Under the pieces are notes generated by a model. It saw nothing but the letters and a program-made list of their open reading frames with translations. It made no database searches and had not been told where the DNA came from. A DNA stretch of 55,045 nucleotides, filler included, from Stramenopiles sp. TOSAG23-2 (lineage: Eukaryota), in assembly GCA_900128395.1 (NCBI GenBank). It is 3 parts of 3 records of this genome, joined end to end, with 100 filler letters (N's around TTAATTAATTAA, not from the genome) between each part and the next. Parts side by side here need not be neighbours in the genome. Positions count along the whole stretch, not along the records: positions 36,784 to 55,045 come from LT649612.1; 2 more parts are not named here. One strand, 5' to 3'. The stretch's first letter is position 1. Each line of letters begins with the position of its first letter. Shown here one piece after another: positions 36,684-54,505 of the stretch. Made by a program: the position numbers and the translations under genes.

Positions 36684-36783
36684 NNNNNNNNNNNNNNNNN
36701 NNNNNNNNNNNNNNNNNNNNNNNNNNNTTAATTAATTAANNNNNNNNNNNNNNNNNNNNNNNNNNNNNNNNNNNNNNNNNNNN
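36684..36783. other. Artificial contig linker (N44-TTAATTAATTAA-N44)
   Basis: N runs around a six-frame stop linker. Confidence 0.97.
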
Positions 36784-38258
36784 AGAATATAGATCTAGAT
36801 ACTGAGCATAGTAGATATATATCCGTGTAATATCTTCTATCTTCTATCCACTGTATAAGTTGAAACCCACCCCCACTAGCAGCACACCAGAACACAACAT
36901 GGGAATATCATTAGACACTATATTTATAGCGTAACCTACTTACTGGCGGCCTCTATTCTCAGTTCATCTTTTGTTACGTATCTGGTGCTCTGGTATTATT
37001 TTGTCGAAAAAATAAATCAGTTGCAAAATAAAAAGGCCTACAAGCACCTATTTATATTAGTACTACTCATAATACCATCTCACACAGGTAAAGGATACCA
37101 GGTAGCTCTAGCTAGCGGGCTAGCTATCTAGTGGAAATACCGTGGCAATTTAATATAATACGGTTATTTCGTTAAAAAAGATGCATATATATGATGTACA
37201 TATATATGGGACGGACATAAAACATATACAATACAGAGAAACAGACAACATTTTATTAGTTACAAAAGATATCCTTTTATAAAATAGAAATTACATATTA
37301 TCTAAACATATTAAAAATACAATTGTAAACGGGTGTCAAATATGAAAAAAGCAATGAAACGTTGTTGTAGAAACCAAGCTACACAATTAATTTTCTTAGT
37401 TATTTTCATCCCTGCCATGTTATTGCCGATTGAACAGAAATTTAAAAAATATTTTTTAATACAAAAATATTTATAATCAAAACAATTGTAGAGGAAGGGA
37501 GGAAATATTTTTAATATCTCTTAACAATTTTTAAAAAAATTTAAATATCATTTTTTATGTGTTTAATTTTTTACGTACGAAGTATTAAAAAATATTTTTT
37601 ATTTATAAAAGCTACGTAAAAAGAAAAATTTACCCCTGAACTTCGTTAAAAAAATACGCGGAATCGATTAAAAAAGGGTGTGTTTTTATATTTTTACATT
37701 TTATATAAAATATATTAAAATATAAAAATATACGTATGGCTCAAATCGGCAAAGATTTCCCCAGGGCCTGTGTAGGCGTAGCTAAAATATGCTAATTTTA
37801 TGTAATGATATATACCTTCTAAATTTTAGCGCATGGACTCTTCCTCTTCCATTCTTGGTCAATTTCAGGTCCTCCAATGCTTTGTTATAATCTCCGAACC
37901 TAGAAGGATCTAGGAGCTGACCTTCGACCCCGGAAATCGACTTATCTCACTTTATGAGATTTGACCATTTCCAGATCGAAAAATTGAAAAATGAATTGAA
38001 AGGACCGTCTCTGGCCATCAAAAAAAAATAAAAAATTAATAATTGATAAACTTTTCGTTAATAATGTGTATCGTTTCGATTTCTCGACCAATATAATATC
38101 TAAATATATGTGTTAGAAGCTAGTAAAGTGTCATTGCTCATACAAAAATATGTTATTATAATAGAACTGTCATCGTTTTTATATAGATGTTTATAGTTTA
38201 ATATATTATAACAAACAAATATTTTTTGATTATTGTAGATTTTGGTTGAAAATAGACT

Positions 38259-41200
38259 ATGGCAGACAGCTGGACTTGCAAAGAATGTGGTAGAGGTGAT
38301 AATAAGCACCATATTCGCCTCAACTTTTATTCTTGTAATTATTGTCACCCAAGGAAGCCAAAAGGAAAGAGAAGAAGAGTTAAAAAATATGTTAGAGCTA
38401 ATAAACAACAAAAACAACATCCATCAGATATGCGTTCTCCAATACCATCATCATCATCAAGTAATAATAATAAGAATAATAATAATAGTAATAATATAAA
38501 GATTAAGTCCAAATCCAGACGAAATACACGTACCAAAATTAGTGATGCAAACAAAGCATATTGCAAGATGCAGATTGAACATTATACTTTATTGTGTGGG
38601 ATGTTAAATCAATTGGACTTTACATTAGAGATAGACCATATCAGACAGATCAAAAAGATATATGTATATAAATATTTTGAGCAGATGATTATGTATTATC
38701 GCTCTGAATCAAAGAATAGGGCAACAACAAAGGTCCATGAGATTGCAAGTAAAGTTGCAAAGGATCCATCTATAGGTGGTTTGCCTTACAAACGCGGTAA
38801 AAAGCGTCATGGGAAAGTGTCTGGAAGACAAGTAAGAAATTGGGCAAAACAATTTATCCAATCTGGAGATTTCAAAAAGAATGAAGTTGGTCTATGGGAA
38901 AGGTATAATGTGATAACACATGAGGAAGATGTTAAACAAAAAGTATTGGAATACCTGAACGAACATATTGGTGTTGAAAAGACGTTCAAAATATTTAAAA
39001 ATGGTAAAAAATCCAAAGGATTTCGACGGATGAAAAAATTTAATATGTCACAATTTAAAAGGAAAGTAAATGCAATTCTTAAAGAATCAAAGATTTTGAA
39101 AAATAAAGGAAAGTCAAAAAAACAAATAAAACAACCAACATCAACCGCACCAATAGCACCAATAGCACCAATAGCACCAATAGCACCAATAGCTCAACTA
39201 GCAACAACTACTACTACCACCACCACCACCACCACCACCACCACAACAACAACAACTACTACTACCACAGCAACAACACAAAATGCAATACCAAGTAATG
39301 TAGTAGAAAATGATGCTAATAATAATAATAATAATAACAATAACACCAATGAAAATGATAATGCAACTGAGACTGTAGAGCCTGAATATATGACTGTTTC
39401 TGATAAAGTATTATATCAATGGCTTAATCTCCTTGGTTTCACATATGGTTCTGTAAAAAGTCGTGGGTATGTTGATCGTCATAATGACGACGATGTTGTT
39501 AAATATCGTCAAAATAAATTTTTGCCGAAATATTATGAACAAGAACACCGCATGTATCACTGGATATCAATAAAAAATGACAATGGTGAACCAACTACAT
39601 TTCATATAGATACTTATACCCGTTGGTTTGAGGCACAATTTGGCCAAGAATTTGATTTAACTAAACTTGGTCCATATCGTGGGCAATTACATCTAGATTT
39701 TGTTCAAGATGGTGGAGCAGTAGACCATTTAGATCATCATATGCAGCCATTAATACCTGTCTTTCAAGATGAATCTACATATGGTTCAAATGAAACACCA
39801 AAATATGCTTGGTCTAAAATTGGTGGTGATGTTACAATGTCAAAAGATGATGTTGGCCAATCTGTCATGATAAGTGGTTATTGTACTGAATTTGATGGTA
39901 TTATTACTATGACAAGTGAACAACTTGCAGAAGTAAATTACAACCGTCAAAATGCAGGTAAACAAGATCTGAAGTATAAAGAATTAGCAACTGCATTTAA
40001 GTATGGTAAAACACATGAAGGGTATTGGAATGCAGAATTAATGCTTGAAGATATAGATGATGCCATAGATGTATGTGAAGTTGTATATAGTGGTAATCAG
40101 ATGTTTTATTTTTTTGATCATAGTACTTGCCATGGTGCATATGCAGATGATGCATTACGAGCAGAGCTTATGTCAGCTGGTCCAGGTGGAAAACAACCAT
40201 TAATGCATCCTACAACATGGAAAGATGAAGAAGGAAACATAAATGAACAATCAATGGTATTTGAACCAGGAGATATTCCAGTTGTCCCATTTACTGATGG
40301 AATAGATGCTCATATTGGTGAAGCTAAAGGCTTACGGCAAGTGTTATTTGAACATGGTTTGATCACAGAGGAAGTAGCACAAATTAAGCGATTTGTAAAG
40401 AAGAAAGATGGAAATGGTGGTGTGAATGCTGATGGTAAGAAAAAGAAAAAAAAGAAAAAAAAGGTAAAATATATTCCACCAGAAGTAATAACATGGTTAG
40501 ATGAAGATGGGAAATTACAACCTGGAACAAAAAGGAACGGTAATTGTGGATGTTCTGCCAGTCTTCCATTGCCAAATATAGATTTACATGATGTTGGAGA
40601 AGAAGAAAAAGCGAAGTTTTATAGAATCTATGGATGTGGAGAAGATTTGATGCCAAATAAAAGGATTGAAGAAGAATGTGTAGATCCTGATAATCCAACG
40701 AGGATACATCCTAATTGCACTGCTTCCTTACATAAATGCTGTAGTTATTATGCATGTGCATATTGCCATAATCAATATCATAAAAAGTGCTTGGGTCTAG
40801 ATCCATATAAAGGCTTCAGTAAAGATGCTGAATTTTTCAACGAGAAAGATTTTATATGTCCAGAATGTATTATTTGTGCAAAGGAAGATTTAGCATATAT
40901 ATCACCATCTGATACTGATGATGAAAATGAAAATGAGGAAGAGGAGAAGGTGAGTGATGATAATGATGGCAACAATGATGCTAATGCTAATATTAATGGA
41001 AGTAGTAGCAATAGTAGTAATAATAACAGCAATAGCAATAATAGTATTAATAGTGATAATAATAATATTATTGCTATGGATGTAGATGAAGAAGAAGAAG
41101 AAGATTATTCACTTAAAGGGTTACGTAAATTAATGGCAGAACAAGAGGATTTTATGAACCAAAAATCGCAGGTAGAAGAACTAATTGTAAGACGGAATCA

Positions 41201-41549
41201 TCTTTGTTTGTTTCTTCCAAAATTCCATTGTGAATTAAACATGATTGAGTTGATATGGGGAAGGAGTAAAAGATTTGTACGTGACAGAACAAACGGCCAG
41301 TTTGATCGTCTACTCTATGGCGATAAGAACTATGAGAAAGGTCTAATTTTTTTATCATATGAAGTTGGTGAAGGTAAAAATATGACCAAATCATTAGTTT
41401 TTAAATATGCTCGTAAATGCCGCGAGTTAATGAATATTTATCATAAAAATATTGAGTCGGCGAATCTGCATGCGGTACGTGCTTCATATAAGAGCCATAG
41501 ACGCGCATCAGAACGTCTTCAAGCAGTTTTTGATGCACAACGTGCATAA
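38259..41549 (+). CDS. DDE transposase (1096 aa) with N-terminal Zn ribbon and inserted PHD-like finger
   Basis: FQDES (D504), FFDHSTCH (D620), FLPKFHCELNMIELIWGRSKR (E997); WTCKEC..CNYC at the N-terminus; CAYCHNQYHKKC...FICPEC insert. Confidence 0.88.
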   Translation: MADSWTCKECGRGDNKHHIRLNFYSCNYCHPRKPKGKRRRVKKYVRANKQQKQHPSDMRSPIPSSSSSNNNKNNNNSNNIKIKSKSRRNTRTKISDANKAYCKMQIEHYTLLCGMLNQLDFTLEIDHIRQIKKIYVYKYFEQMIMYYRSESKNRATTKVHEIASKVAKDPSIGGLPYKRGKKRHGKVSGRQVRNWAKQFIQSGDFKKNEVGLWERYNVITHEEDVKQKVLEYLNEHIGVEKTFKIFKNGKKSKGFRRMKKFNMSQFKRKVNAILKESKILKNKGKSKKQIKQPTSTAPIAPIAPIAPIAPIAQLATTTTTTTTTTTTTTTTTTTTTTATTQNAIPSNVVENDANNNNNNNNNTNENDNATETVEPEYMTVSDKVLYQWLNLLGFTYGSVKSRGYVDRHNDDDVVKYRQNKFLPKYYEQEHRMYHWISIKNDNGEPTTFHIDTYTRWFEAQFGQEFDLTKLGPYRGQLHLDFVQDGGAVDHLDHHMQPLIPVFQDESTYGSNETPKYAWSKIGGDVTMSKDDVGQSVMISGYCTEFDGIITMTSEQLAEVNYNRQNAGKQDLKYKELATAFKYGKTHEGYWNAELMLEDIDDAIDVCEVVYSGNQMFYFFDHSTCHGAYADDALRAELMSAGPGGKQPLMHPTTWKDEEGNINEQSMVFEPGDIPVVPFTDGIDAHIGEAKGLRQVLFEHGLITEEVAQIKRFVKKKDGNGGVNADGKKKKKKKKKVKYIPPEVITWLDEDGKLQPGTKRNGNCGCSASLPLPNIDLHDVGEEEKAKFYRIYGCGEDLMPNKRIEEECVDPDNPTRIHPNCTASLHKCCSYYACAYCHNQYHKKCLGLDPYKGFSKDAEFFNEKDFICPECIICAKEDLAYISPSDTDDENENEEEEKVSDDNDGNNDANANINGSSSNSSNNNSNSNNSINSDNNNIIAMDVDEEEEEDYSLKGLRKLMAEQEDFMNQKSQVEELIVRRNHLCLFLPKFHCELNMIELIWGRSKRFVRDRTNGQFDRLLYGDKNYEKGLIFLSYEVGEGKNMTKSLVFKYARKCRELMNIYHKNIESANLHAVRASYKSHRRASERLQAVFDAQRA
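39146..39345 (+). repeat. Coding low-complexity repeats: (GCACCAATA)5, poly-Thr and poly-Asn trinucleotide tracts
   Basis: APIAPIAPIAPIAPI, a long T run and an N run in the transposase. Confidence 0.85.
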
Positions 41550-41971
41550 TTACGCTTTGTGCATTTTGTACACATGAAATAATTGATGATATGTCCAGAA
41601 AATGTGAAAATGTAAGAAAAAAATCAAAAAATTAATGATATTTACATGTAAAATTATAAAAGTTAAAATATTTTAATAAAAAGTTTGTATGCACGTCACA
41701 CTAATTATTCTACACATGCCTTTAAATTTTTATACGCTAATATTAAGAATTGGCTGAGTTATCGTCGTTTGCATGGGGGAAATCTTTGCCGATTTGAGCC
41801 ATAACAAAAATAAAAAATATAATAAAAAAATTATTTACGCAATGATATGTAACACACACAATATTCTCTCTCTCATATTTTTCTATGATAGATGATATTT
41901 ATATTTTACGAACGTATATATTACCAGTATATCATTATCAAAAATTAATATATATATTTTTACAAAAAAAG

Positions 41972-44900
41972 TTAATCATTCATGTTCAAAATACACGCAA
42001 CACCTTCAAATACCCAATGATTAGGTTTTTCATTTGTAGCTAACTCAATAGCAACAACATAATTTGTGCTTATTCCTGTTGTACTCAATGCTCCTGCTCT
42101 TACAGTAGTTTTATAAACTGGGCATAAATAATTTTCCTTGGCTGGTATATGATCTTTCGTTGGTAAAAAGTGTATCATAGGCATTTCACTAAACATTTCT
42201 CCTGGATGAGATTCATTTAAAACCATTTGTTCTTGATCAAATCGAGCACCTTCCATCCATAAACCATATATGAACACGCCATTTCGCGGTGCTCTTAACT
42301 GTGTGATATCCACAGCCTTTGGTCCAACATTCACCACTGAAAATGAAAAATCTAACGAGCTTATTGCTACACTATGTCGTCTTGCATGAACCTGCAATAC
42401 CCCAGTTAAAAACCCTTGTGGGAAAAAGAATAAATATAATGGAAATGCATTCGGGCGCCCTTTCTTCAACCAAGTTCTCATAAACTCAATTCGTATTTTC
42501 AAATCAATGGTATATGAAGCTAAAGGTTTCAATGAGTCATAATTCAATTGTTTCCATAAACGTGGTATGTTATTGTACAACAAATCATCATACATGCCTT
42601 CCAAATCTGCTGACATTACTACTAAACCTTTAATGGCTTTTTGTAATTCTTTCACTGTTTTCTTAGCTAAACGCAACAAACGATTGAATTTTTTCATTTC
42701 TTGACTTAATACTGTCGCCAATGAGTCCATTAAACCCTCTGAATCAATTTTAAAAGTTGTTTTCCCTGCGTTTCTCATATCTAATTCATCCGGTATATCG
42801 TCCTCCAACGATGCTGCAATTTCTTGTACTTTTTCATCCGGTGTTTTCCCGCCTGCACCACCACCAGAACTTGCTCGCGGCTGCATCATCAAAATAACAT
42901 TCACCATTTCCGTCGTTTGCTGCATTTGCGAAGCTACATTTGCATTTTCATGCATACCAAATATTTCTGGATCATCTTTCAAAGGCAGACTTGATACGTA
43001 TTCTAAGCATTCTTCGTATGATGCATCGCCACTTGGAGCTTTATAAATACCACTTTCGCTTAAAGTGTATGATTCCTCTAAAATACTTGGAGTGTAATAT
43101 TTACTTAAAATTTCCATCAAACATCGTCTATCCCAATCATCCGTAACTCTACCGCCATAATTAATGTCTCCCGTAACATACGTTAACGAATCCCATGGAA
43201 CAAGATTTTCCGTGGTTTCAGCAGCATCCAACAGAAAGTTTCGTAAAACTTCGATTGACGTTTGTAAATCACTATCATTGAATTCATAACGTATATTCCA
43301 TCCCAATGGCCCGAATTTTCTTCGCTCCTGAGTCATAGCATGGAAAAATGTTACGCCAAAAAGTATTTTCTTCCATCGCCTCTTTTCGTCAACCTTTTCA
43401 AACTCTTCCCACGTCTCTTCAGGGATCATTAATCCAAAGGAGCGCTTGATATTTGCACGTAATCCTTGAGGTGGTTCATTCGTCATTTTAATACTATTTT
43501 GCAACACAGATACTGGAAAATAAGATGCAGGGAACGAAGTCAAAAATAATCTAAAGTCATCGTTGATGTCTTGAGCTTCGTCAATTAAATCAAATACTTG
43601 TCTTTCTAAACGAGTCATCCAACTTTTTGCTAAATGACAATTTTGTAGCAAAACCCAATCGCCGGTCTCCCGCGCATCTTTTATCATTGCCTCTGCCCTT
43701 GGACCTTGTCCTTGGCCCAATGAGATCACTTGTAATCTTTCTCCATAATCTTTGCTTTTAGCTAATTGTAACAACAATTCAGTTGGATCAGCACCTGAAA
43801 CTAAAACAAAGATACACGGAGTGATTTTATTTGTGTCATTGTATACGTCCAACATGGACACAGTTGGTGCTACGGCAAAGGATTCACCTAGTTTAGATGA
43901 AACGAAATCTGTTGCAGCAAAAACAAGTTTTTCTTCTTTCAAACAACGAATCACCAATAATTTTTGGAATGCCGTTAAGCCGTACGTACCTGTATCTTCT
44001 TCGTCTTCTTCAAGTTCTGCCTCGTCACTTTCGTCATCAGCTGCAACAGCCTTTATGACTTTAGGTGGCAATGACCATTTACCTGGCAAATCTGCACGAT
44101 GAGGCTCTTTTCCTTGAATCCATTCTTTCCATTTATCAATATCTTGTGTAAAAGCATCGGAGAAACCTTCAAATGCGTATGGCAAATCAATTTCTAAACC
44201 TAATACATTATCCCATTGAGTTTCAGATAAAAGCACAGGGTCTGGATTTTCTTTTTTCTTATTCCCTCCACTTTTATTTTTATCTTTACCCCCTGCCTTT
44301 TTATCTTTTTCATCTTCTTCAGCATCAGTAATGATAATAGGCGATGGACCGCGCAACAATATGTTCCATTCTTGATCAGTTAAATCGCCTTTTTCTCTTA
44401 AAATTTGCACACACGTGACAAAGGCAAATGTATTTTTATGTTTTTCGAATAAACCACGACAAATATTTTTATACACATAATCCGTTAGATATTCAATCAA
44501 ATTGAAAAGCCTGATCTGTAAGTCATCATTCTCCTCTGCTTCATCTAAACAATTGTCAAATAATCTACAGTAATAGTCTAAACTGTATTGATACATCGGA
44601 TCAACAACTGAGAAATCTGCAATAACAAAATATATAATTGATCCTCGAACAGACATCGGCTTATATTTGTTTCTAAGCTCAGTAATTTCAATTTCTGTTT
44701 TCTCAGATTCTGCCACTCGCTCTTTTATAATATTAGATGTTGTTTTGGAACTTGCTAGTACATTGATTAGCTCAATATTGTCTAATATATTTCCATCTGA
44801 CTCCGCTAGTAATTTCAAGATTTTACTTTCAATATCTTTCAATTGTTGTTTATCATCAGCCATGCTAATGACTAAATTATCTTTCTTTTGCTCTACATCT

Positions 44901-47900
44901 GGTCTTTCAGCTTTCACCACACGAGCTAGTAATTGATCTTCTAATCCATTTTTCGTTACGGTAAAATTAATAATAGTTACTTTAATACATATTTCTGGAA
45001 CATAATGTGGATTCGCCATTTTCGTTGTCATGTAAAATCTGAACGAATCTGTATATTCAACATCGGAATCACCTAAGCGTATCAATCTCCTTGTACCTTG
45101 CATATATGTATTTTTAGATAAGACGTTTTCGATAGACGGGTCAATAAACTCGCTGATGTCTTCAATTAAAACAGGAGTGCCATTGCGTATATTATTTTCA
45201 AACACTCTTAATAAATTTGCATTATTCATTTTTGTTACCTCTAAACGATTTGCTTTTTCAGTCTTTTTGATCCAACGATTTGCCTGCCCTTGTGGATCAA
45301 TCATTAAAGGCCAGGTCAAACCTCTTGTGCACATAATAGCATTATCTGTGGATACCCAATCAGCTGGCAAGGAATCTATTTGCCATTGTCTGATTTGAAC
45401 CGGTTTACCAATGGTGTTTCTTAACGTACAATCGTCGCTTCCTGGTATGGATGTCGCTAAAAGTGAGCTTCGCCAGTTGTCCATTAATTTATTCCTGAAA
45501 ACACCGGTGAATGGCCCATAGTAACTCACACAAGCAGCCGATAAAAAAACGTTACCAATTAATTTTTTCTCTTCAATTTTCATGATTTCTACCCCTTCTT
45601 TCCATCGAATATACTCGTCAGCAAGTCCAACTGTTAACTTTTCAGCACGACCAAGTCTTGCTTTCGTTTTTTCTGATTCGTCTTCTAATCTTTGTTTCTC
45701 TTGTACTGTCTCGTCGCACAGTTGCTTCAAGTTTGCTACTTTGTCCAAAACCGCCTGCAATTCATCTTGTTTTATTTTCAATGCATCATTAGCTTCTTTT
45801 AAAATGGCGTTCATTTCTTTTACCTTCTCCCGTTTCGGGCCCACCTCTTTTGCTACTTCATCATACACCACCATCGCACAAGCCCACATACATAAAGAAG
45901 TAGCTGCTTTAGAGACTTTCTTTACAACTTCCACGTCCATTTCAGGCAAATCTAAATATTGTGCTTTCAATCGCCGTATAATTCTAGGTTCTATGTTATC
46001 TTTATCATACTTTTGCAATTGCGTCATGAAGGTACTATCCGTCATTACCTTTTTAGCAGTATCCCAATCTGGTTTCCTACCCAGCAAGATGCAAACGGCT
46101 TCCAATACAGTTTTTACTGCTTTTGGTGGATTTGCAAATGACTTCATTTCCGTAATATCTTTTTTATCTAGTGCTTTTAATGAATTGACAGCAGCTTTCA
46201 ATGCTGGCAATGCCCTATCCAAATCTTTTTGCGCATCCGCTTGTATTGCAGCAGTTTCGTCTGCTTGTTTTTTCACAACTGCTTCATCTGCCCTGACACG
46301 TACAGCAATTTTTTCTGCGTCAATTTGCTCTATTGCTGTTTGTTTTATCAATGCTTCAGCATCAATGGCTTTTTGTACCAAAACTGGTTGTAATTCTGTC
46401 AAGGTGATTTGCATTTCATTAACCATTTCATTTGTTTCTTCTAATTTCTTGACTCCAATTTCCAACCTTCGCCTATTTGTACTTTCTTCCTCTTGTCTCT
46501 CATTAAGCAATAATAAATACAAATCAATGCAATTTAAGTAGCTTTTCGGTGTACTGTAAACGACGCGTCGAAAACGACGGAAAAATTCTTGAGCCATTTC
46601 GTGTATACTGGAATGAACTAAAACATACATTTTTACAAGATCCGCTTTCGCTTCCTCTGTTTCTAGTTCTAAATCTTTTAAAAAATGTTCTGCTACAGCT
46701 TTGAGAGCGCTCTTAGGCCAAGCGTTAAACCAATCAATTGTAGTACAATTGATTAATGATGGAAAGTTTCGTAGACGGCTGCGAAAAGCATCTCCAACTG
46801 GCGAAAATGATAAAACTATATGTAAATTATCACGTACACGAAGATTGAACTCTTGCAAGCAATTAGCTCTAGTACCAATTTTACCAAGACGTTTCATGAC
46901 TGGGCGCATTTCATCTACAATTTTGTCCTTCTCATCGCTCTCCCATAAATTTGGTATGTCTCCAGAATTTAAAATATTATTAATGTCTTCGACAAAGCTT
47001 TCTTCCACAATTTGAGAATCTGGGAAAATCCAAGTTACCGGCTTTCCCTCTACACCAGCAATGACCATTTGCTCTTTAATATTTTCATGGAAATCTGGTG
47101 TGCCATAACCATTCTTCAATTCGATTTGGAAAAATTCATAATCACTAATGAAAGCACATAATTTAGTAAGACTTTGTTTACCACTTCCAGCAATCCCAAT
47201 TAATAAAGCATTGCCACGAGGTTGTCTTAGAATTCTACTAATACGCGTGACATGATCAACTGCATCGGCAAAGAAAACCAAATTCATTTTTTTTGAATTT
47301 GATACGTTATAATCTTCCAAGTAACTTGTTAAAATATTGCCTGCCAGCTTCATGTTACCTTCAAACTCTGCATACAGTTCCTCTCCAGGCTTGAAAAAGT
47401 CCCCAAATATAATCGGACGACCCGTAACGAATAGCTCTTCGTAAGTCATGTCACTTTTAAACACACGTTTGATTTTGTCTGTCACTGCAGTGTTAAATGT
47501 CACTTTATCTTCCTCAGATATTAATCTATCGTGGAATACACGTTGAATTTCATGTATCCATAACCTAGTCATTGTTGTCTGCGATTTGCAGTTTTCTGGT
47601 GCAATTTGCAAAATACCTTGAAAGACCTTTGATACGTCTCTTAAATTGAACGTATAATGGGCTTTTTGTGGCGTTGGAAGCATCACTTCTTGTATTTCAT
47701 AAAAGATATCAATCGTTGCTTGAACGATTGGCTTTTTCAATTTTTTACAATCGCGATTGAATGGACTTAAAAATCCTTCTAGGATACTGCCAAAAATGAC
47801 TTGCATTGCATCTTCATTCGCTGGTGGCAAACACAAAATATTGAAATGGCGTACGAAACGTGGTGTTAAATCATTTCTTCCTCCACCAGGTGGACCACCA

Positions 47901-50900
47901 GCGACGAAAAGCACAGTATCGATGACATCTCTCCAATATTGCTTCTCCCTATCGAAAAAACCGCTAGAATCAGCAAATTGTCGCAGTAGCTCAACGGGTG
48001 GTTGGGCTCCATACTCCTCAACCGTTGGCATATTTACATCATCTACAAATACTACTACTAATTTGTTGACTGGCGCCCCAAGCGTAGTTCTGCTTTTTTT
48101 CTCTAACACTACCTCAATCATGCTTTGTGTAACTGCAGCATTTGTTTGAGCGGAAAATCCAATTATATTTGGTAAAACACCTAGACCTCCATCGTCTTTT
48201 GATGGCTTTAACGATGTTAATACTTGCTGTACAGTAACACTTTTTCCAGTTCCAGTTACACCTGTAAAAAATGTAGGTTTACGTACTTTCAACAGTTTCT
48301 CCATTAAAAATGAACTTTGGACAGTTGTTACAGTTGGTACTAACATTTGAAAGTACGGCAATTTGGTATCGTATTCAAATTTTGGAACAATTGTGTGCCA
48401 TTGTTGAAACTCGTGAGATTTATTTTTGTTTACAAATGAATCATACAACGTGCCTCTACGTGGCAAATCAGCTTTAATTATGTTTGAGTCGTCAAACAAT
48501 TCTTGCATGAAATCATCAAAATCGTCTCGAAATTGATCAGCAATTGCTCCACCAATGGACCATGTATAACTGAAAATAAAAACACGTTCCATAATACTTT
48601 GTAACTGATCTGAATCATCCTTAGCGTCAAAATTAATGCCTTCTCCAGATGAAAAACATGCTTGAAAAATATAACATAAGCTGACAACTAAATTTAAATC
48701 GGTTGATTCAATTGGCTCTTTGCAATTTGTGCGAACGTATTTCAAACCCTTGTCGATTGTATCTGTAAAGCACTCTTTCAAATGTGTTTTCAAGTCATCC
48801 GTCAGTTGATTTTCAGCTTCACCATCATCGGCTTTAGACATTTTTCCCCCATACAATCGTTCAATCCAAGAATCTACATATGGTTCCCAACCCATATGTG
48901 CGGGCGTGACATACATTACACCTAAACGACTCACTGTGGCAGGAGATGCAACTTCTAGATCTTGTACTTCAAATATACACTTCATGGTACGCCTTAACTT
49001 GATACGTTCACCATTTGCGAGACATAATGTCATATTGTCATCCAGCACAGTATTCATATTTTCAATCCACAAAGCATCGATTGGTCCATCAAATATTGTC
49101 CATTTACGTTCTGAAGATGTATCAGCTGCATAATTTCTTAAAATGGTAGATGCTAAACCATCACACCATTCCTGAGACATTGCATTAAATTCTCCATATA
49201 GCTCTCCCATCGTTACAGATTTTGGATTTAATACTGACAATGTAACCTCGTCATAAGCATCGCCACGATGTCCATTTAATGCTAATGCAGTCATAGCTTT
49301 TGACAATATTTGATAGCAAGTGGTTTTTCCACCTCCAGTTGGACCAACCATACTTACACCAAATCTTACATTTTGAGTTTCAAATAATTGTATGACTTTC
49401 TTTAAAAAACCTTCACTTTCTTGGTAGCCATTTTCTCTTATGACTTGTCGGATGGCCTCTTCTAATTCGCCATAACTATCGTAAGGTACTTTCACGCCAG
49501 GGAATAGATCTTTTAAAATAGCATGGAACAATGGTAAATCTTCGTCCAAGAATTTTGGAACGTTACTGTCACGCATGGCTTTAATTAAAACAACATCTTC
49601 AGATAAATCTGGATTTCCTCGTTTTAATGAACCAGCCATGACCAAAACCGATCGCACCGCACGTAGACCGTAATCATAATGGCGTTGCTGCGATAATTGT
49701 TCGCTACTTAATTTATACATTTTCGTCATTTTGCGCGATAAGATAGTTGCAGAATCAAATCCTTCAGCGAACAGCATGATTTCTGCAATCAATGCATAAT
49801 CTGGAACCATCATTGCTACTGGGCGAAACATGACTTTTAAATTATCTGGAAGTTCTGTACGACCTGCATATCCAGGGTTCATTGTAATGATAACATGGTG
49901 AGAGCGAATTGGTATATCGTATCCGTCGAACATGGCACGTTCGTTGCCGGACAAACGTGCTTGACGTAGCACAAGCATTTGCTGTGCAATAACTGATAAA
50001 ACTTCGATATCGATACGGTTAAACTCGTCTAAACACGTCCATGCGCCAGCAGATGACAATCCTTTAAATAATTGGCTCATCATCTTAATATCAATTTGGT
50101 CACTACAGTTAAAAACAATACATTGTATTGCCATTGCTTTTGCTAAATCTTTACTACTTTCTGTTTTGCCAGTTCCGGCTGGTCCAGCAGGGCTGGCGCC
50201 TAATTTTAAGTGTAGGGCACCGGAAATCGTCATCCAACATCGATCAGTTAATGGCGTAATTACTAAGCAGCCAGTTGCACCTTCGTATTCATACCCATAA
50301 TCAAAGACTGCATTACTTTGTCGAACAGTTAGCAATTCATCTTCAGCGTCCCAATTGTATCGCAATTGTTTCTGCCACAAGAAACTTGCTGGAGAATCAC
50401 ATTCACTTGTTATCAATTCACGCACAATATCTCTTGCGTGTACATTAATTGTTGCCAACACAACAATAACTTTACGCTGTAATTTTGTTAATTTTTTTCT
50501 GATCAAAAATGTCAAATCAAGTAGCCATTGCAAGTTGCTTTCTAGCCAATCATCCATAATTATTTTATCTCCACCGTTTTCGAGGTCTCTTAAAACCTTT
50601 TCTGTTTGATTGCACCACATAACTTTATCCATGGTGTTGACAACTTGGGCGGGGTGTGAAAAAACCCACTCCATACGTTCGCGTTCAAAATAATCGATTG
50701 CGCCATCTTTCATACAGCCTCGTAAAGCTACGCGCATTCGATCCTCTACACTTGTTAACCATTCTTCCACGGTACCTCTTGCTTTCAAATTTTTTCCCAA
50801 CGGAACTTCTTCCCCTTCGCCTGAAAACATTTTGCGTATGTCTAAAATACCTGAGCCTTTAAATTCTAATCTTACTAGATTATCAAAGCATTTTCGTAAA

Positions 50901-53900
50901 TAAGGCTGAACTGCTCTTGGATCTTTCGTTTGGGCTAAAATTTCTAATAATTCATCATTGGATAAGAAATAAAATCGAGGGAATGATGCACGTTTTGTCT
51001 CTAAATACTCTTCTAATTTCTTTTGTATTTCATCCAAAGTAGCATTATGCTTTGCAAATAATTCTTTTCTACCTTTATGCGTTCCGGTTGTTATGCAATT
51101 TGGATTTGTGTTTACAACTCGCATGATACCTTTCCAACTTTTATCTACTTTTTCGAATTTGCCTGTCTCCGCTGGCAATTGCCTTTGGATATCAGGTGCT
51201 GCGAAAATATTTTCCAAGTACATCCAATTGCGCTGGCAAACAAGCCATTCTTCTAACGTTTCCTGTAATAAAACCAATTTTTTTTGATAATCTTCAACTC
51301 GCTCTCGGATGGCTGCAACGTATCTGGAACCCATAATAGTACCCAATGTTACTAACGAGTCATCCATTTTTTGCATTACTTCTGCAACAGCACCTAGAAC
51401 GAAAATGCCTTTTTGATCTTTATAGACTAATACTTCGAACTCTTCACGACGCCACATTTGGGTTACATTTACCAGCATTTCTTCTAAAATAGCTTCATTG
51501 ATGGCTTCAAGAGCAATTTCATTGATTTTGTCGGCATGATCCATGATACGTTTCTCAATTAATAGACCACATGTAAATCCTTCGACTCCATCAATTTCGT
51601 AACCAATTAATTCATGTATTTTTGCCCAATGCCTTGGCCTTAAATCTTTGGTCCGTAAGTCATTTACAACTGGCATTGTTAATTTAAAATCCTCAACACG
51701 AGCTCGTAATAATTGTGGGACATTACTATCTGGTAATTTCTTTGCTGATGAAACGGCAACTTTGAAATACGTTTGTACCTCTTTTTCGATGACAAATGGG
51801 TCTACCTTTTCAAATGGTTCATTGAGCCAACCAACTGTTTTCCCCGTCCAAGTGAACAATGCATCCCACAATTTTTTTTTTAATTTCAAATCTGTAATTA
51901 ATCGTGGCAAATTATCATATTCTGTTGGCATATATGCTAATGCATCTTGTTGCTTCGTATACGTTTCCGTATCACGAATAATCTGTTGCACCAATTCATG
52001 TTTCTGATTAAGCATTTTTACAGTTTCATTTAAATTTGACTTGGAATCACTGAACCGTTTGTCTTGTAGCTCTTCATAAACAGACTGTATCAACTCTTTT
52101 GCTTTTGCAATACTATCTTTCAGTTCTTGTCCAAAATATTGCATGTGATTAGACATCTTATCCTCTAACTTTGTTATGGAAACGCTCAGCGAACTTTTCA
52201 ATTGGTACATCATGAAATTTTTCGATGATAGCTCCTCGCTAATCTCTATTTCCTGATCTTCCATCATTTTGAAAAATTTCATAACATGCATGCATTCATC
52301 CTCTAAATCATACATTCTATCATTTGTTTCCTCTAGATATTCGCGTAATTCGACAAAGTGTTGAACATTTAATGGGGAAGCACTGATGGTATTATTACGC
52401 TCTTCTAATTCATCTAGACATTTTTGGTTCTTTGTGTCTGCAAGGTTCAAAAATAATTCATACATTAATTTATTCAAACAATCAGTTGGCGATGGCCTTA
52501 ATTTCTCAAACAGCATATTTCCATTTATTTTTATCAAATCTATCATAACTATTCTTTCGATACCTTCTTCAAAAAATTGTTCTTGCCTTCGATATTTTTC
52601 TAAAATATCCAATAGCTGCTCTATGGTGTGATTTTTATGGGTACTAACAATCATGTTTTCCATGGCACTTAAATTTAATAGGTAATCTTTTACAAATGGG
52701 TCATACACTTTTGCCGCCGCTTTTGCCTTTAAAAACATTTGCGTCGTCCGTTTGTTGATATCAGTAATAGCTACTCTAAATGTTGGGTCATTCATCATTA
52801 TTGTTTCTACATCTGCTGTAGATCCTATTTGTCCATGCTCATCAATAAATGGCTGAGCATACACTATAAATTCTTCTTCCGTTAATAAACGCGTGGGCAT
52901 CGTAGCAACTCGTAATGAATCGAACAAATATACATCTAACGTGCCTCTAAAATCATCTGATAAAGGTGAAAACGCCAATTGGGAGTTTTTCAATAATATA
53001 TTTACCTCAAACATGACAGTCTTTTCATCTCTTAAACGATTTAAATACGACTGTGTAGATTCCACCCCTAATCGTACATGTATACCCATTACTATGTAAT
53101 CAACCATTTGTATAAAGCGCATTAACCTTCGGCATTGTGTGCGCATTGCTGCTCTCTCAGTAAATGTTATTGCATCTTCAAACTCAGAATCATTATCTTC
53201 ATCATCTGAATAATCCCTATTATTATTATTATTATTATCTTCATTATTTCCTTGGGGAAAGCCATTGTATTCTAAAAAATCATTTAATGATTTTTTACAA
53301 ACTTTTGCCATTAAATCATATACATTTTGTCCAAAATTTTTTAATCCCCCTTCCACGATTTTACGTTGTTTATCTTGTGCATCTTGAAAACTATTTAATG
53401 TGTATGTGTCATCAACTAGATCTATGTTTATCAAATTTGTACGTAATAATTGGGATCCATATTTTGTTGTTTCTAATAATGGATTTGCAAATTCATCTGA
53501 TAATATAAACAATGTTTTCTTTAAACGCCTTTTAGCACTCTGTATTTTCGAATTTCGAACATTTTTCTTCCAAAATGTGAAATTTTTCCATTTTCGATAT
53601 CGACGAAAGAAACGAATTTTCAATATTTTATGAAACCCTGCATGTTCCCGTTCAAATTGTTCTATGGTGGTAAAATCAGTTTGTTTACCATAATTGTATG
53701 TTATTCCAGACTTACTTATTGTAAAAAATTCAATCGAAGAAGATTTTCCACCACTCAATAAGTTTGAATTAATAACTCTTAAATCATAACGATTGTCTGT
53801 TCCTTCCTTTTTTTGTAAATATTGGACACCACCGGACAACAATTGTTCTACATTAAATTTTGTATCTATATATAATTTTGCTAAAAGGCTTGACTTTTCA

Positions 53901-54505
53901 GGGTACAACAATCTTTGCCTTAATACTTTTTCGTCTTTTGAAGCTTTTTTGAAACGCTCTAATTCAATTATAGTTTTTGTTTTCTTTGTTACATGTTGGC
54001 AAATATCAAATGTTACGATGTTGTTGTTGCTACCACTATCATTTTTTCCCTCTTCAACGACCGTTAGTAACTCTTTGGTATTACCAATTTTTTCGCGTTT
54101 ACTTTGTAACCGCGATGGTTTTTTTGCATTTGGTGGTTGTGGCTTCAGCGTATTCATTTGATCCACATCCATCATATTGTGAAAACGTGGCCGTGTTGAC
54201 ATGATTTTAGGTACGAGTTGTCGTTGTGGTGCACTTTGCCGTTGATGGATTCTTTTTCGAGAAGCACTTCCAGGTCTGCGTTGTTTATTACTAAAAGGTC
54301 TTTTTCTACTTGTTGGTAAATTGTACCTTTGTGCAGGTTTATTTTTTGTAGAGTATAATACTCGTGATAAAAGTTTATCTGTATTATCATTTGCGGGAAA
54401 TTTGTTCAAAGATTTTTGTCCCGTCTCATTTTTAGATTCTTTTTCAGTAGCTGGCAATCTTATTTCATTTATTTTTTTCGCCTTGTTATTATTATTATTA
54501 TCCAT
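41972..54505 (-). CDS. DNAH6: Axonemal inner-arm dynein heavy chain, DNAH6-like
   Basis: 4177-aa intronless ORF; P-loops GPAGTGKT, GPTGGGKT, GVTGTGKS, GIAGSGKQ; LDEFNRIDIEVLSV; stalk coiled coil; C-terminal CPVYKT..RAGALSTTG.STNYV. Confidence 0.93.
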   Translation of the reverse strand: MDNNNNNKAKKINEIRLPATEKESKNETGQKSLNKFPANDNTDKLLSRVLYSTKNKPAQRYNLPTSRKRPFSNKQRRPGSASRKRIHQRQSAPQRQLVPKIMSTRPRFHNMMDVDQMNTLKPQPPNAKKPSRLQSKREKIGNTKELLTVVEEGKNDSGSNNNIVTFDICQHVTKKTKTIIELERFKKASKDEKVLRQRLLYPEKSSLLAKLYIDTKFNVEQLLSGGVQYLQKKEGTDNRYDLRVINSNLLSGGKSSSIEFFTISKSGITYNYGKQTDFTTIEQFEREHAGFHKILKIRFFRRYRKWKNFTFWKKNVRNSKIQSAKRRLKKTLFILSDEFANPLLETTKYGSQLLRTNLINIDLVDDTYTLNSFQDAQDKQRKIVEGGLKNFGQNVYDLMAKVCKKSLNDFLEYNGFPQGNNEDNNNNNNRDYSDDEDNDSEFEDAITFTERAAMRTQCRRLMRFIQMVDYIVMGIHVRLGVESTQSYLNRLRDEKTVMFEVNILLKNSQLAFSPLSDDFRGTLDVYLFDSLRVATMPTRLLTEEEFIVYAQPFIDEHGQIGSTADVETIMMNDPTFRVAITDINKRTTQMFLKAKAAAKVYDPFVKDYLLNLSAMENMIVSTHKNHTIEQLLDILEKYRRQEQFFEEGIERIVMIDLIKINGNMLFEKLRPSPTDCLNKLMYELFLNLADTKNQKCLDELEERNNTISASPLNVQHFVELREYLEETNDRMYDLEDECMHVMKFFKMMEDQEIEISEELSSKNFMMYQLKSSLSVSITKLEDKMSNHMQYFGQELKDSIAKAKELIQSVYEELQDKRFSDSKSNLNETVKMLNQKHELVQQIIRDTETYTKQQDALAYMPTEYDNLPRLITDLKLKKKLWDALFTWTGKTVGWLNEPFEKVDPFVIEKEVQTYFKVAVSSAKKLPDSNVPQLLRARVEDFKLTMPVVNDLRTKDLRPRHWAKIHELIGYEIDGVEGFTCGLLIEKRIMDHADKINEIALEAINEAILEEMLVNVTQMWRREEFEVLVYKDQKGIFVLGAVAEVMQKMDDSLVTLGTIMGSRYVAAIRERVEDYQKKLVLLQETLEEWLVCQRNWMYLENIFAAPDIQRQLPAETGKFEKVDKSWKGIMRVVNTNPNCITTGTHKGRKELFAKHNATLDEIQKKLEEYLETKRASFPRFYFLSNDELLEILAQTKDPRAVQPYLRKCFDNLVRLEFKGSGILDIRKMFSGEGEEVPLGKNLKARGTVEEWLTSVEDRMRVALRGCMKDGAIDYFERERMEWVFSHPAQVVNTMDKVMWCNQTEKVLRDLENGGDKIIMDDWLESNLQWLLDLTFLIRKKLTKLQRKVIVVLATINVHARDIVRELITSECDSPASFLWQKQLRYNWDAEDELLTVRQSNAVFDYGYEYEGATGCLVITPLTDRCWMTISGALHLKLGASPAGPAGTGKTESSKDLAKAMAIQCIVFNCSDQIDIKMMSQLFKGLSSAGAWTCLDEFNRIDIEVLSVIAQQMLVLRQARLSGNERAMFDGYDIPIRSHHVIITMNPGYAGRTELPDNLKVMFRPVAMMVPDYALIAEIMLFAEGFDSATILSRKMTKMYKLSSEQLSQQRHYDYGLRAVRSVLVMAGSLKRGNPDLSEDVVLIKAMRDSNVPKFLDEDLPLFHAILKDLFPGVKVPYDSYGELEEAIRQVIRENGYQESEGFLKKVIQLFETQNVRFGVSMVGPTGGGKTTCYQILSKAMTALALNGHRGDAYDEVTLSVLNPKSVTMGELYGEFNAMSQEWCDGLASTILRNYAADTSSERKWTIFDGPIDALWIENMNTVLDDNMTLCLANGERIKLRRTMKCIFEVQDLEVASPATVSRLGVMYVTPAHMGWEPYVDSWIERLYGGKMSKADDGEAENQLTDDLKTHLKECFTDTIDKGLKYVRTNCKEPIESTDLNLVVSLCYIFQACFSSGEGINFDAKDDSDQLQSIMERVFIFSYTWSIGGAIADQFRDDFDDFMQELFDDSNIIKADLPRRGTLYDSFVNKNKSHEFQQWHTIVPKFEYDTKLPYFQMLVPTVTTVQSSFLMEKLLKVRKPTFFTGVTGTGKSVTVQQVLTSLKPSKDDGGLGVLPNIIGFSAQTNAAVTQSMIEVVLEKKSRTTLGAPVNKLVVVFVDDVNMPTVEEYGAQPPVELLRQFADSSGFFDREKQYWRDVIDTVLFVAGGPPGGGRNDLTPRFVRHFNILCLPPANEDAMQVIFGSILEGFLSPFNRDCKKLKKPIVQATIDIFYEIQEVMLPTPQKAHYTFNLRDVSKVFQGILQIAPENCKSQTTMTRLWIHEIQRVFHDRLISEEDKVTFNTAVTDKIKRVFKSDMTYEELFVTGRPIIFGDFFKPGEELYAEFEGNMKLAGNILTSYLEDYNVSNSKKMNLVFFADAVDHVTRISRILRQPRGNALLIGIAGSGKQSLTKLCAFISDYEFFQIELKNGYGTPDFHENIKEQMVIAGVEGKPVTWIFPDSQIVEESFVEDINNILNSGDIPNLWESDEKDKIVDEMRPVMKRLGKIGTRANCLQEFNLRVRDNLHIVLSFSPVGDAFRSRLRNFPSLINCTTIDWFNAWPKSALKAVAEHFLKDLELETEEAKADLVKMYVLVHSSIHEMAQEFFRRFRRVVYSTPKSYLNCIDLYLLLLNERQEEESTNRRRLEIGVKKLEETNEMVNEMQITLTELQPVLVQKAIDAEALIKQTAIEQIDAEKIAVRVRADEAVVKKQADETAAIQADAQKDLDRALPALKAAVNSLKALDKKDITEMKSFANPPKAVKTVLEAVCILLGRKPDWDTAKKVMTDSTFMTQLQKYDKDNIEPRIIRRLKAQYLDLPEMDVEVVKKVSKAATSLCMWACAMVVYDEVAKEVGPKREKVKEMNAILKEANDALKIKQDELQAVLDKVANLKQLCDETVQEKQRLEDESEKTKARLGRAEKLTVGLADEYIRWKEGVEIMKIEEKKLIGNVFLSAACVSYYGPFTGVFRNKLMDNWRSSLLATSIPGSDDCTLRNTIGKPVQIRQWQIDSLPADWVSTDNAIMCTRGLTWPLMIDPQGQANRWIKKTEKANRLEVTKMNNANLLRVFENNIRNGTPVLIEDISEFIDPSIENVLSKNTYMQGTRRLIRLGDSDVEYTDSFRFYMTTKMANPHYVPEICIKVTIINFTVTKNGLEDQLLARVVKAERPDVEQKKDNLVISMADDKQQLKDIESKILKLLAESDGNILDNIELINVLASSKTTSNIIKERVAESEKTEIEITELRNKYKPMSVRGSIIYFVIADFSVVDPMYQYSLDYYCRLFDNCLDEAEENDDLQIRLFNLIEYLTDYVYKNICRGLFEKHKNTFAFVTCVQILREKGDLTDQEWNILLRGPSPIIITDAEEDEKDKKAGGKDKNKSGGNKKKENPDPVLLSETQWDNVLGLEIDLPYAFEGFSDAFTQDIDKWKEWIQGKEPHRADLPGKWSLPPKVIKAVAADDESDEAELEEDEEDTGTYGLTAFQKLLVIRCLKEEKLVFAATDFVSSKLGESFAVAPTVSMLDVYNDTNKITPCIFVLVSGADPTELLLQLAKSKDYGERLQVISLGQGQGPRAEAMIKDARETGDWVLLQNCHLAKSWMTRLERQVFDLIDEAQDINDDFRLFLTSFPASYFPVSVLQNSIKMTNEPPQGLRANIKRSFGLMIPEETWEEFEKVDEKRRWKKILFGVTFFHAMTQERRKFGPLGWNIRYEFNDSDLQTSIEVLRNFLLDAAETTENLVPWDSLTYVTGDINYGGRVTDDWDRRCLMEILSKYYTPSILEESYTLSESGIYKAPSGDASYEECLEYVSSLPLKDDPEIFGMHENANVASQMQQTTEMVNVILMMQPRASSGGGAGGKTPDEKVQEIAASLEDDIPDELDMRNAGKTTFKIDSEGLMDSLATVLSQEMKKFNRLLRLAKKTVKELQKAIKGLVVMSADLEGMYDDLLYNNIPRLWKQLNYDSLKPLASYTIDLKIRIEFMRTWLKKGRPNAFPLYLFFFPQGFLTGVLQVHARRHSVAISSLDFSFSVVNVGPKAVDITQLRAPRNGVFIYGLWMEGARFDQEQMVLNESHPGEMFSEMPMIHFLPTKDHIPAKENYLCPVYKTTVRAGALSTTGISTNYVVAIELATNEKPNHWVFEGVACILNMND

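Follow-up and report, generated by a model that had tools for sequence, protein, structure and literature searches.

The stretch of DNA analysed here, called the window in what follows, comprises 55,045 nucleotides from the genome assembly GCA_900128395.1 of Stramenopiles sp. TOSAG23-2, and its last part, taken from record LT649612.1, holds a DNA transposon with a single gene encoding a DDE transposase. To judge from its sequence, this transposase most probably carries a zinc finger of the PHD type inside its catalytic domain, in the spacer that separates the second catalytic Asp from the catalytic Glu (the D-E spacer). The window is AT-rich, with a G+C content of ~27-39% when read in steps of 2 kb, and it is densely packed with long uninterrupted open reading frames (ORFs) matching eukaryotic protein families. 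A 100-base gap at 36684-36783 is made of two runs of N flanking TTAATTAATTAA, a six-frame stop linker, which indicates that the window consists of separate contigs joined together. The neighbourhood upstream of the element beyond ~36800 is therefore, owing to this contig joint, not contiguous with the preceding sequence.

The transposon is bounded by perfect terminal inverted repeats (Table 1), the 26-base core of which is matched twice in the window and not once in 100 shuffles. A TA is found at the outer edge of both arms, the flanks reading CGTA and TAAC. This fits the TA duplication of Tc1/mariner elements, in which case the outer TA may be a target-site duplication leaving a 26-bp repeat; given a single copy and the palindromic nature of TA, it can equally be part of the repeat itself. 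No second copy was found in the window, blastn and tblastn of the element matching only the element, and the subterminal motifs repeated at both ends beyond the 28-bp repeats are limited to AT-rich 9-11-mers. The region is an intact cut-and-paste DNA transposon, and the marine microbial eukaryote that harbours it has a gene-dense genome. Perfect ends and an uninterrupted ORF point to a young copy, which was probably inserted recently.

Table 1. Features of the transposon and its transposase (positions along the window), followed by modules carried by related transposases (positions in residues of each relative).
Feature	Position	Strand	Basis or remark
Whole transposon	37735..41803	+	4,069 bp, single ORF, bounded by inverted repeats
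Left terminal inverted repeat, 28 bp	37735..37762	+	100% complementary to 41776-41803
Right terminal inverted repeat, 28 bp	41776..41803	-	Perfect partner of left arm
Transposase ORF (P0001)	38259..41549	+ (frame +3)	1096 aa plus stop, uninterrupted
N-terminal C7-x2-C10 ... C26-x2-C29 motif, then basic KPKGKRRRVKK	38277..38345	+	Read from translation
Catalytic region, residues 390-1096, RNase H-like DDE core of Tc1/mariner type split by long spacer	39426..41546	+	AlphaFold2 model and structural alignment
First catalytic Asp D504, motif FQDEST (PVFQDEST)	39768..39770	+	D in 76/76 non-gap rows
Second catalytic Asp D620, motif FFDHST	40116..40118	+	D in 87/88 non-gap rows
Conserved structured subdomain just past D620 (GGKQP ... 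QSMVF ... G-x-KG ... VL-x-E-x-GL)	40119..40409	+	Family consensus; pLDDT >90 to ~model residue 320
Nine-Lys run, residues 727-735, nuclear localisation signal-like	40437..40463	+	Translation
Upstream Cys/His cluster C763, C765, H777, C793, C807	40545..40679	+	Residue listing
PHD-like finger, residues 817-873	40707..40877	+	phmmer against solved structures, collinear P0003 finger, pattern statistics
Acidic, Asn/Ser-rich low-complexity linker, residues 885-949, leading back to catalytic core	40911..41105	+	Translation; pLDDT <50
Catalytic Glu E997 (PKFHCELNMIELIW), 376 residues past D620	41247..41249	+	E in 88/89 non-gap rows
PHD of P0013			31.7 bits, above cut-off; N-terminal of core
Tudor of P0029	residues 509-556		30.9 bits, above cut-off; C-terminal of core
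SAP of P0052	residues 204-237		31.0 bits, above cut-off; inside D-E spacer
SAP of P0081	residues 378-408		21.8 bits, just below cut-off; inside D-E spacer
Ulp1 protease of P0118	residues 994-1167		50.5 bits, above cut-off; C-terminal end
Ubiquitin hydrolase (UCH) of P0129	residues 726-882		37.8 bits, above cut-off; C-terminal part

The enzyme is an IS630/Tc1/mariner (ITm)-type DDE transposase, given that its confidently predicted core fold is closest to Mos1, SETMAR and Sleeping Beauty, above the integrases. Indeed, AlphaFold2 run on the 92-row family alignment gives a core with 304 residues at a predicted local distance difference test (pLDDT) value of >=90, and VIA-align places this core at Z 16.3 from both SETMAR (3f2k, root mean square deviation (rmsd) of 2.6 Å, 195 aligned residues) and Mos1 (4mdb) and at Z 14.7 from Sleeping Beauty (5cr4), with the retroviral integrases as the next structural group at Z <=11.9. 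The ten best Foldseek matches are all Mos1, Sleeping Beauty or Metnase chains, with weak E values of 0.04-0.3. At the sequence level, the Pfam family DDE_3 (PF13358) is matched with an E of 3.4e-6 and 27.4 bits, below its cut-off of 28.6 and over profile positions 93-141 only, its C-terminal third; many relatives exceed this cut-off, as do P0016 with 40.0 bits and P0031 with 46.9 bits. The catalytic triad was counted over the non-gap rows of the same alignment, the Glu being picked as the E of N-x-I-E from what we take to be its homology with E279 of Sleeping Beauty. The cut-and-paste DDE transposase of the original prediction is thus supported by core fold and triad, and its placement of a module between the second Asp and the Glu is borne out as well, D620 and E997 being near-invariant columns of the family. 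Furthermore, the structural match covers model range 17-681, across the insertion, which puts the finger inside the catalytic domain and not beyond it.

The finger follows the pattern H-x2-C-x12-C-x2-C-x4-H-x2-C-x22-C-x2-C over residues 817-873, with H817 (or C827/C828), C820, C833, C836, H841, C844, C867 and C870 as proposed ligands and C873 as a spare. Between residues 740 and 900 the Cys and His residues are C763, C765, H777, C793, C807, H817, C820, H825, C827, C828, C833, C836, H837, H841, C844, C867, C870 and C873. The PHD-like string from which the finger had been proposed, CAYCHNQYHKKCLGL...FICPEC, is found letter-exact in the translation, its coordinates 40677-40877 corresponding to C807-C873, and the flanks described with it are present: nine Lys at 727-735, a Cys cluster upstream at 763-807 and an acidic/Asn linker at 885-949. 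Read in six frames, the 55-kb window has the pattern C..C-x4-H-x2-C-x12-46-C..C at one place only, 40755. Of 20,000 shuffles each, those of the whole protein never produce it and those of the Cys-rich segment (161 aa) do so 5 times. This Cys/His pattern is more than chance.

Comparison of residues 805-885 with all solved chains by phmmer gives eight matches, namely four distinct BPTF sequences, two of DIDO1, DATF1 and Pps. Two of the BPTF chains, 2fui and 2f6j, have 'PHD finger' in the names given by their depositors; the other two, 2ri7 and 6aze, bear the name 'Nucleosome-remodeling factor subunit BPTF' alone, and these two together with the DIDO1, DATF1 and Pps chains appear to be PHD domains as well. 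The best match, the BPTF PHD finger, is of marginal significance (E 0.0024, 21.3 bits) and extends over chain residues 6-57 of 62. In its alignment C820, C833, C836, H841, C844, C867 and C870 fall on ligand positions 2 to 8 of the C4HC3 finger, that is on seven of the eight, and the motifs N-x-Y-H-x2-C-x-G and aromatic-x-C-P-x-C agree with the YH-x2-C-LGL and F-I-C-P-E-C of the window. The nearest language-model cluster is a PHD cluster as well, with a score of just 0.75, which is a lead and not evidence.

A finger at the same site is found in a distant relative. In a FastTree phylogeny built on 387 well-occupied columns and 72 of the 92 rows, the 20 rows with <80% coverage having been dropped, the window protein groups with P0002 (support 0.99), then with P0008 (0.75) and then with P0003 (0.95). 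P0003, the deepest member of this clade, is 30% identical to the window protein, has its triad at D132, D250 and E602, and carries C-x2-C-x19-C-x2-C-x4-H-x3-C-x22-C-x2-C with all eight C4HC3 ligands; a single BLASTP segment between the two proteins extends from the finger as far as the Glu motif. The P0003 finger is matched over its full length by three Pfam PHD models, all below their cut-offs, PHD_4 with an E of 6.4e-4 (20.1 bits vs 30.6). Among solved chains, five of its six matches are to FBXL19, KDM2A, PHF21A and CHD4 and the other is a rubredoxin, all at E >=0.066. P0003 also has ~50 extra residues, not present in the other members; they lie past its second Asp (250) and ahead of the QSMVF-like motif, and by eye they resemble a Tudor/Agenet-like barrel. 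As for P0008, its C-terminus is degenerate and it has no finger; the segment 'NGHCSCEPC', considered as a possible first half, proved in the family alignment to be a degenerate PKFHCELN motif followed by frame-shifted sequence. The simplest history would be one capture in the ancestor of the clade and later decay in some lines.

Several observations weigh against a working PHD finger in the window protein. The first Cys of the C4HC3 set is P818 in the BPTF alignment, H817 being adjacent to it. Profile comparison and fold prediction, by which the original prediction had proposed that the finger be checked, did not bear it out: the Pfam PHD models reach only E 1.1 (PF00628, 9.8 bits vs a cut-off of 24) and E 4.6 (PHD_4) on the window protein, and AlphaFold2 gives a pLDDT <50 for residues 718-941 in the domain context and one averaging 40.9 for the isolated finger, with no usable model in either case. 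A two-sequence profile made of the window and P0003 fingers performs worse than the single sequence, with Far1, which is not a PHD protein, as its best match (E 0.2), followed by DATF1 (0.26); this poor result is attributed to bad alignment of the first half of the finger, and it counts as a negative one all the same. A search with residues 745-895 of a 5.8-billion-protein index returned nothing at E <=10 among proteins of 602-1918 aa and of 30-601 aa, and a scan of JGI metagenome contigs for the pattern gave 144 stretches, none of them confirmed by tblastn. By eye the segment carries about no net charge, which hints neither at DNA binding nor at tail binding. H3K4me3-reading PHD fingers of the BPTF/ING/RAG2 type have an aromatic cage that includes a Trp two residues before the ligand His. 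The BPTF cage residues, which we take to be Y10, Y17, Y23 and W32, align with H817, L824, Y830 and Q839, so that one of the four is kept.

Two further points of this kind come from relatives and variants. P0002, the nearest relative, has a collinear insert of the same length with none of the zinc ligands of the finger; in the BLASTP alignment this insert keeps C793 together with traces such as H-G-Q-Y and Y-K-x2-K-x2-x-F. Given that P0002 retains the insert and lacks the ligands, the finger is dispensable for an open frame. Moreover, ten of the eleven ORF variants listed in metagenome contigs are nonsynonymous and none of the eleven falls in the finger, in what is a small sample, a further 20 variants lying outside this list; the nonsynonymous excess fits neutral drift among copies or strains rather than selection. 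Conservation of the Cys and His residues among copies, on which the original prediction had also relied, therefore fails in part when judged from the relatives, being seen in P0003 and not in P0002. Likewise its PHD identity stands as far as the solved structures, all eight matches to which appear to be PHD domains, and the P0003 finger are concerned, while the Pfam scores are not significant and the first Cys is replaced. On balance, we consider that a PHD-type finger has quite probably been inserted in the D-E spacer of this ITm-type transposase.

A long spacer is shared by a larger group. An exhaustive phmmer search with residues 390-1096 recovers 3,035 cluster representatives at E <=0.001, 712 at 1e-10 and 22 at 1e-30, and the relatives found by word-index search include fungal proteins (Coprinopsis, Mycena, Rhizophagus, Ramaria) annotated 'Tc1-like transposase DDE domain'. 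The transposase is one of a very large family of long-spacer enzymes that has been little described and for which no name was found, the literature looked at not describing this long-spacer group; Dici, considered as a name, is a separate group with a spacer of 34 aa. The spacer ranges from 98 to 376 residues in the 85 members aligned, with a median of 149, the window protein and P0002 having the longest (376). It exceeds 200 residues in six of the 85: the window protein, P0002, P0003 (with its PHD-like finger), P0052 and P0081 (both with SAP) and P0147 (Cys-rich). Its first ~100 residues past D620 are conserved and confidently folded, and the variable part comes thereafter; query residues 332-539, which include the finger, are overlapped by none of the best 150 of the 3,035 phmmer stretches. 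Fungal members have in common a CxxC followed by a CC ~40 residues on, just ahead of a Q-x-DF helix. In the MAFFT alignment this CxxC falls on the CPEC found in the window protein and in P0003, the window protein being without the CC. To go by this alignment, the finger may have grown from an older small zinc site.

Pfam scanning of 168 relatives (62 + 106), with spacer positions taken from the family alignment, reveals further modules (Table 1), and the SAP domains of P0052 and P0081 share their landing site with the window's finger. In addition, the D-E spacer of P0147, 212 residues long with 20 Cys in repeated C-x2-C and C-x-C units, holds a different Cys-rich insert at the same site. The N-terminal PHD of P0013, considered as a moved copy of the window finger, shows no specific similarity to it and the two are separate acquisitions. 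Taken together, chromatin- or DNA-associated modules have been captured several times in this family, at least twice into the same loop.

As to what the finger might do, the reading that we prefer is that of a chromatin tether. In the copy seen here, the loop leading back to the Glu-bearing strand and helix carries a PHD-like finger, held by flexible linkers that are poly-Lys on one side and acidic on the other. Projecting from the spacer after the second Asp, it would tether the transpososome to nucleosomes via a histone tail or another chromatin component and so bias the insertion sites of the element. In Sleeping Beauty the second Asp is D244, and P247 and K248 come just after it. Because these two residues affect target choice, according to PMC8934666, a module hanging from the spacer would be well placed to sense the target. 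Taken as a whole, this is the best explanation we have, and it is put forward tentatively; tethering to chromatin, its central step, is plausible while falling somewhat short of probable. That the finger reads a histone tail specifically is rather doubtful, and the reading of H3K4me3 is unlikely, the aromatic cage being largely absent. Possible ligands are tails that are unmodified or bear a different mark, DNA, or a protein of the host. A broader and more speculative proposal, which we hold to be unlikely as it stands, is that the D-E loop serves as a docking site for interchangeable chromatin modules (PHD in the window protein and P0003, SAP in P0052 and P0081, with PHD and Tudor at the ends of other members), which would build chromatin-guided target choice into the catalytic subunit.

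Other functions can be considered for the finger. In piggyBac the cysteine-rich domain, a cross-brace finger resembling PHD, binds to a motif that is repeated at the ends of the transposon, as stated in PMC8086355 and PMC5861402, and by the same token the window's finger could bind DNA, either its own transposon ends or the target, and help transpososome assembly. The poly-Lys stretch 80 residues upstream of the finger would agree with such a function. So would the presence of SAP, a DNA-binding module, in the same spacer of P0052 and P0081. We nevertheless find DNA binding improbable: the finger, about neutral in charge by eye, is followed by a strongly acidic linker, the only subterminal motifs common to both ends are the AT-rich ones mentioned above, and the nearest sequence relatives of the finger are histone-reading PHD fingers and not the piggyBac domain.

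Cross-brace fingers of the PHD and RING types often serve in contacts between proteins, and the finger could therefore be a structural or protein-protein module acting in dimerisation, host-factor recruitment or self-regulation, with no direct reading of chromatin or DNA. The CxxC ... CC conserved in the basal family and aligned with the CPEC of the window and P0003 suggests that a zinc-stabilised loop may be ancestral, the finger being its elaboration. The window protein does not have the downstream CC partner of this basal motif, however, and the recurrence of PHD, Tudor and SAP in the family points to chromatin or DNA, so that we attach a low probability to a purely structural role.

The finger could also be a decaying passenger, captured once in the ancestor of the clade and non-functional in the present copy, in accordance with the replaced first Cys, the loss of the ligands from the retained insert of the sister P0002, the ten nonsynonymous variants in eleven and the lack of recognition by Pfam; this too we judge improbable, as the finger retains seven of its eight ligand positions and both diagnostic motifs (YH-x2-C-LGL and F-x-C-P-x-C), the uninterrupted ORF and perfect ends point to a young copy, and the finger persists across the divergence, at ~30% identity, from P0003.

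With the chromatin tether as the preferred reading, the element can be set beside known systems. It resembles Mos1, SETMAR/Metnase and Sleeping Beauty in its RNase H-like core (Z 14.7-16.3, rmsd 2.5-3.3 Å over 190-206 residues) and Tc1/mariner elements in its terminal inverted repeats, the TA at each end and the DDE_3 C-terminal part. In Tc1/mariner, the second Asp and the third acidic residue are separated by 34-41 residues, as stated in passages of PMC8533490. The window protein differs from these enzymes by its spacer of 376 residues, by its length of 1096 aa against ~340 aa, and by its zinc finger, which the Tc1/mariner core does not have. The same source, in the passages on Sailor (DD82E; PMC8533490), describes a spacer of 78-111 residues lengthened by an insertion with no recognisable domain, a TATA duplication and the motif I/VVYLDET. 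Sailor is like the window's element in belonging to the ITm lineage, in its lengthened spacer, in its long transposases (~676 aa) and in its occurrence in protists, fungi and animals (passages of PMC8533490). It is set apart by that description from the element studied here, which has a spacer of 376 (family median 149), the flanks CGTA/TAAC and the motif PVFQDEST.

A cross-brace zinc finger built into a DDE transposase is also known from piggyBac, PiggyMac and Tpb2, that of the window protein being putative. Passages of PMC8086355 state that the cysteine-rich domain of piggyBac binds transposon-end DNA, and that those of PiggyMac, weakly, and Tpb2, with a preference for K9/K27 methylation, bind the H3 tail. 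These domains are C-terminal appendages of another superfamily with the arrangement CxxC-CxxC-CxxH-CxxC, whereas the window's finger lies inside the core and is closest to the BPTF/DIDO type. Ginger1 and Mutator transposases have captured a PHD finger at their C-terminus, sometimes together with a Ulp1 protease (passages of PMC2836005). They are like the window's family in being cut-and-paste enzymes that capture PHD, relative P0118 having Ulp1 as well, and unlike it in the C-terminal position of the finger and in being integrase-like or Mutator-type enzymes. In RAG1/RAG2, a DDE recombinase is coupled to an H3K4me3-reading PHD finger. There the finger is on the separate subunit RAG2 and its aromatic cage is present, while in the window protein enzyme and finger share one chain, the finger lies within the catalytic domain, and the cage is mostly unconserved. 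Compared with the BPTF PHD finger (2fui/2f6j), to which it is matched over its whole length at E 0.0024 with C2, C3, C4, H, C5, C6, C7, N-x-Y-H and C-P-x-C in common, the window's finger has C1 changed to Pro, three of the four cage residues replaced, including Trp by Gln, and a loop before C6 that is seven residues longer.

PHD fingers on Ginger1/Mutator C-termini, PHD-like fingers in piggyBac and lengthened Sailor spacers are thus already known, and it is the placement within the catalytic domain that is unusual. We found no description of a PHD finger inside an ITm transposase catalytic domain in the open-access full-text literature, which is not proof of absence. Tc1/mariner elements, much used for gene transfer, are the textbook case of near-random insertion, for which a TA suffices. 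Should this natural member carry a chromatin-binding finger that works, the D-E spacer would be shown to tolerate folded inserts, which would be useful for the engineering of targeted Sleeping Beauty or mariner systems, and a second, independent coupling of a DDE enzyme with PHD would stand besides RAG. Should the D-E loop indeed be a docking site, it would be the DNA-transposon counterpart of chromodomain integrases and of RAG1-RAG2, located where the enzyme faces the target. That PHD, SAP and Tudor recur in one family suggests that tethering to chromatin has been selected for in protists and fungi with gene-dense genomes, where an insertion at random is often lethal. If the finger is inert, the finding would be one of ordinary domain capture by a mobile element.

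In the N-terminal part of the transposase, residues 1-389 match no Pfam family. The Cys motif and the basic stretch that follows it (Table 1) may be a putative zinc ribbon with a nuclear localisation signal. The N-terminal region is linked to the catalytic domain by residues 295-338 (39141-39272), where a run of APIAPIAPIAPIA gives way to ~20 Thr and these to poly-Asn, at which low-complexity stretches the metagenome contigs suggest that reads are cut. The right end of the element lies 168 bp (41804-41971) from the stop codon of a neighbouring ORF on the opposite strand, which is uninterrupted over 4177 aa (41972-54505, - strand) and which, from its length and the P-loop motifs visible by eye in its translation, we take to resemble an axonemal dynein heavy chain. 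Rfam and tRNA scans show no RNA genes in 36800-42000.

Parts of the stretch occur in marine and seawater metagenome runs, of which three DNA runs from three independent studies and one metatranscriptome were compared. Near-identical contigs cover 40701-41106, nearly the whole finger, with 2 differences (X5), and contigs without differences cover 40848-41240 (X3) and 40895-41319 (X2). In the RNA run two contigs, with 2 and 3 differences, span 39376-40384; overall, the metatranscriptome covers no more of the ORF than 39077-40525, which leaves out the finger, and it hints at transcription weakly at best. RNA contigs also cover the 3' end of the 4177-aa ORF. The X2 and X3 contigs, from two independent runs, end at 41800 and 41803, a weak hint that a repeat edge or the edge of a polymorphic insertion lies there. 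Contigs that skip ~4.2 kb, from 37600-37610 to 41809-41812, were considered as empty sites and rejected, their sides being 21-22 AT-rich letters that miss the ends of the element.

Depth was compared along the element with the low-complexity bin 40940-41146 left aside. The segment 37722-38041, which lies in the element upstream of the ORF, has a summed depth of 51-110 in comparison with 0-20 in most bins of the ORF, and this in all four runs; the depth of the right end (41768-41974) is likewise raised. The segment 37722-38041 is represented by copies with 9 to 17 differences (9 in 132 letters, 17 in 170), the RNA run included, and it ends in an A-run near 38020-38040. This high-depth segment may be a nested repeat, or else an end common to short non-autonomous derivatives.

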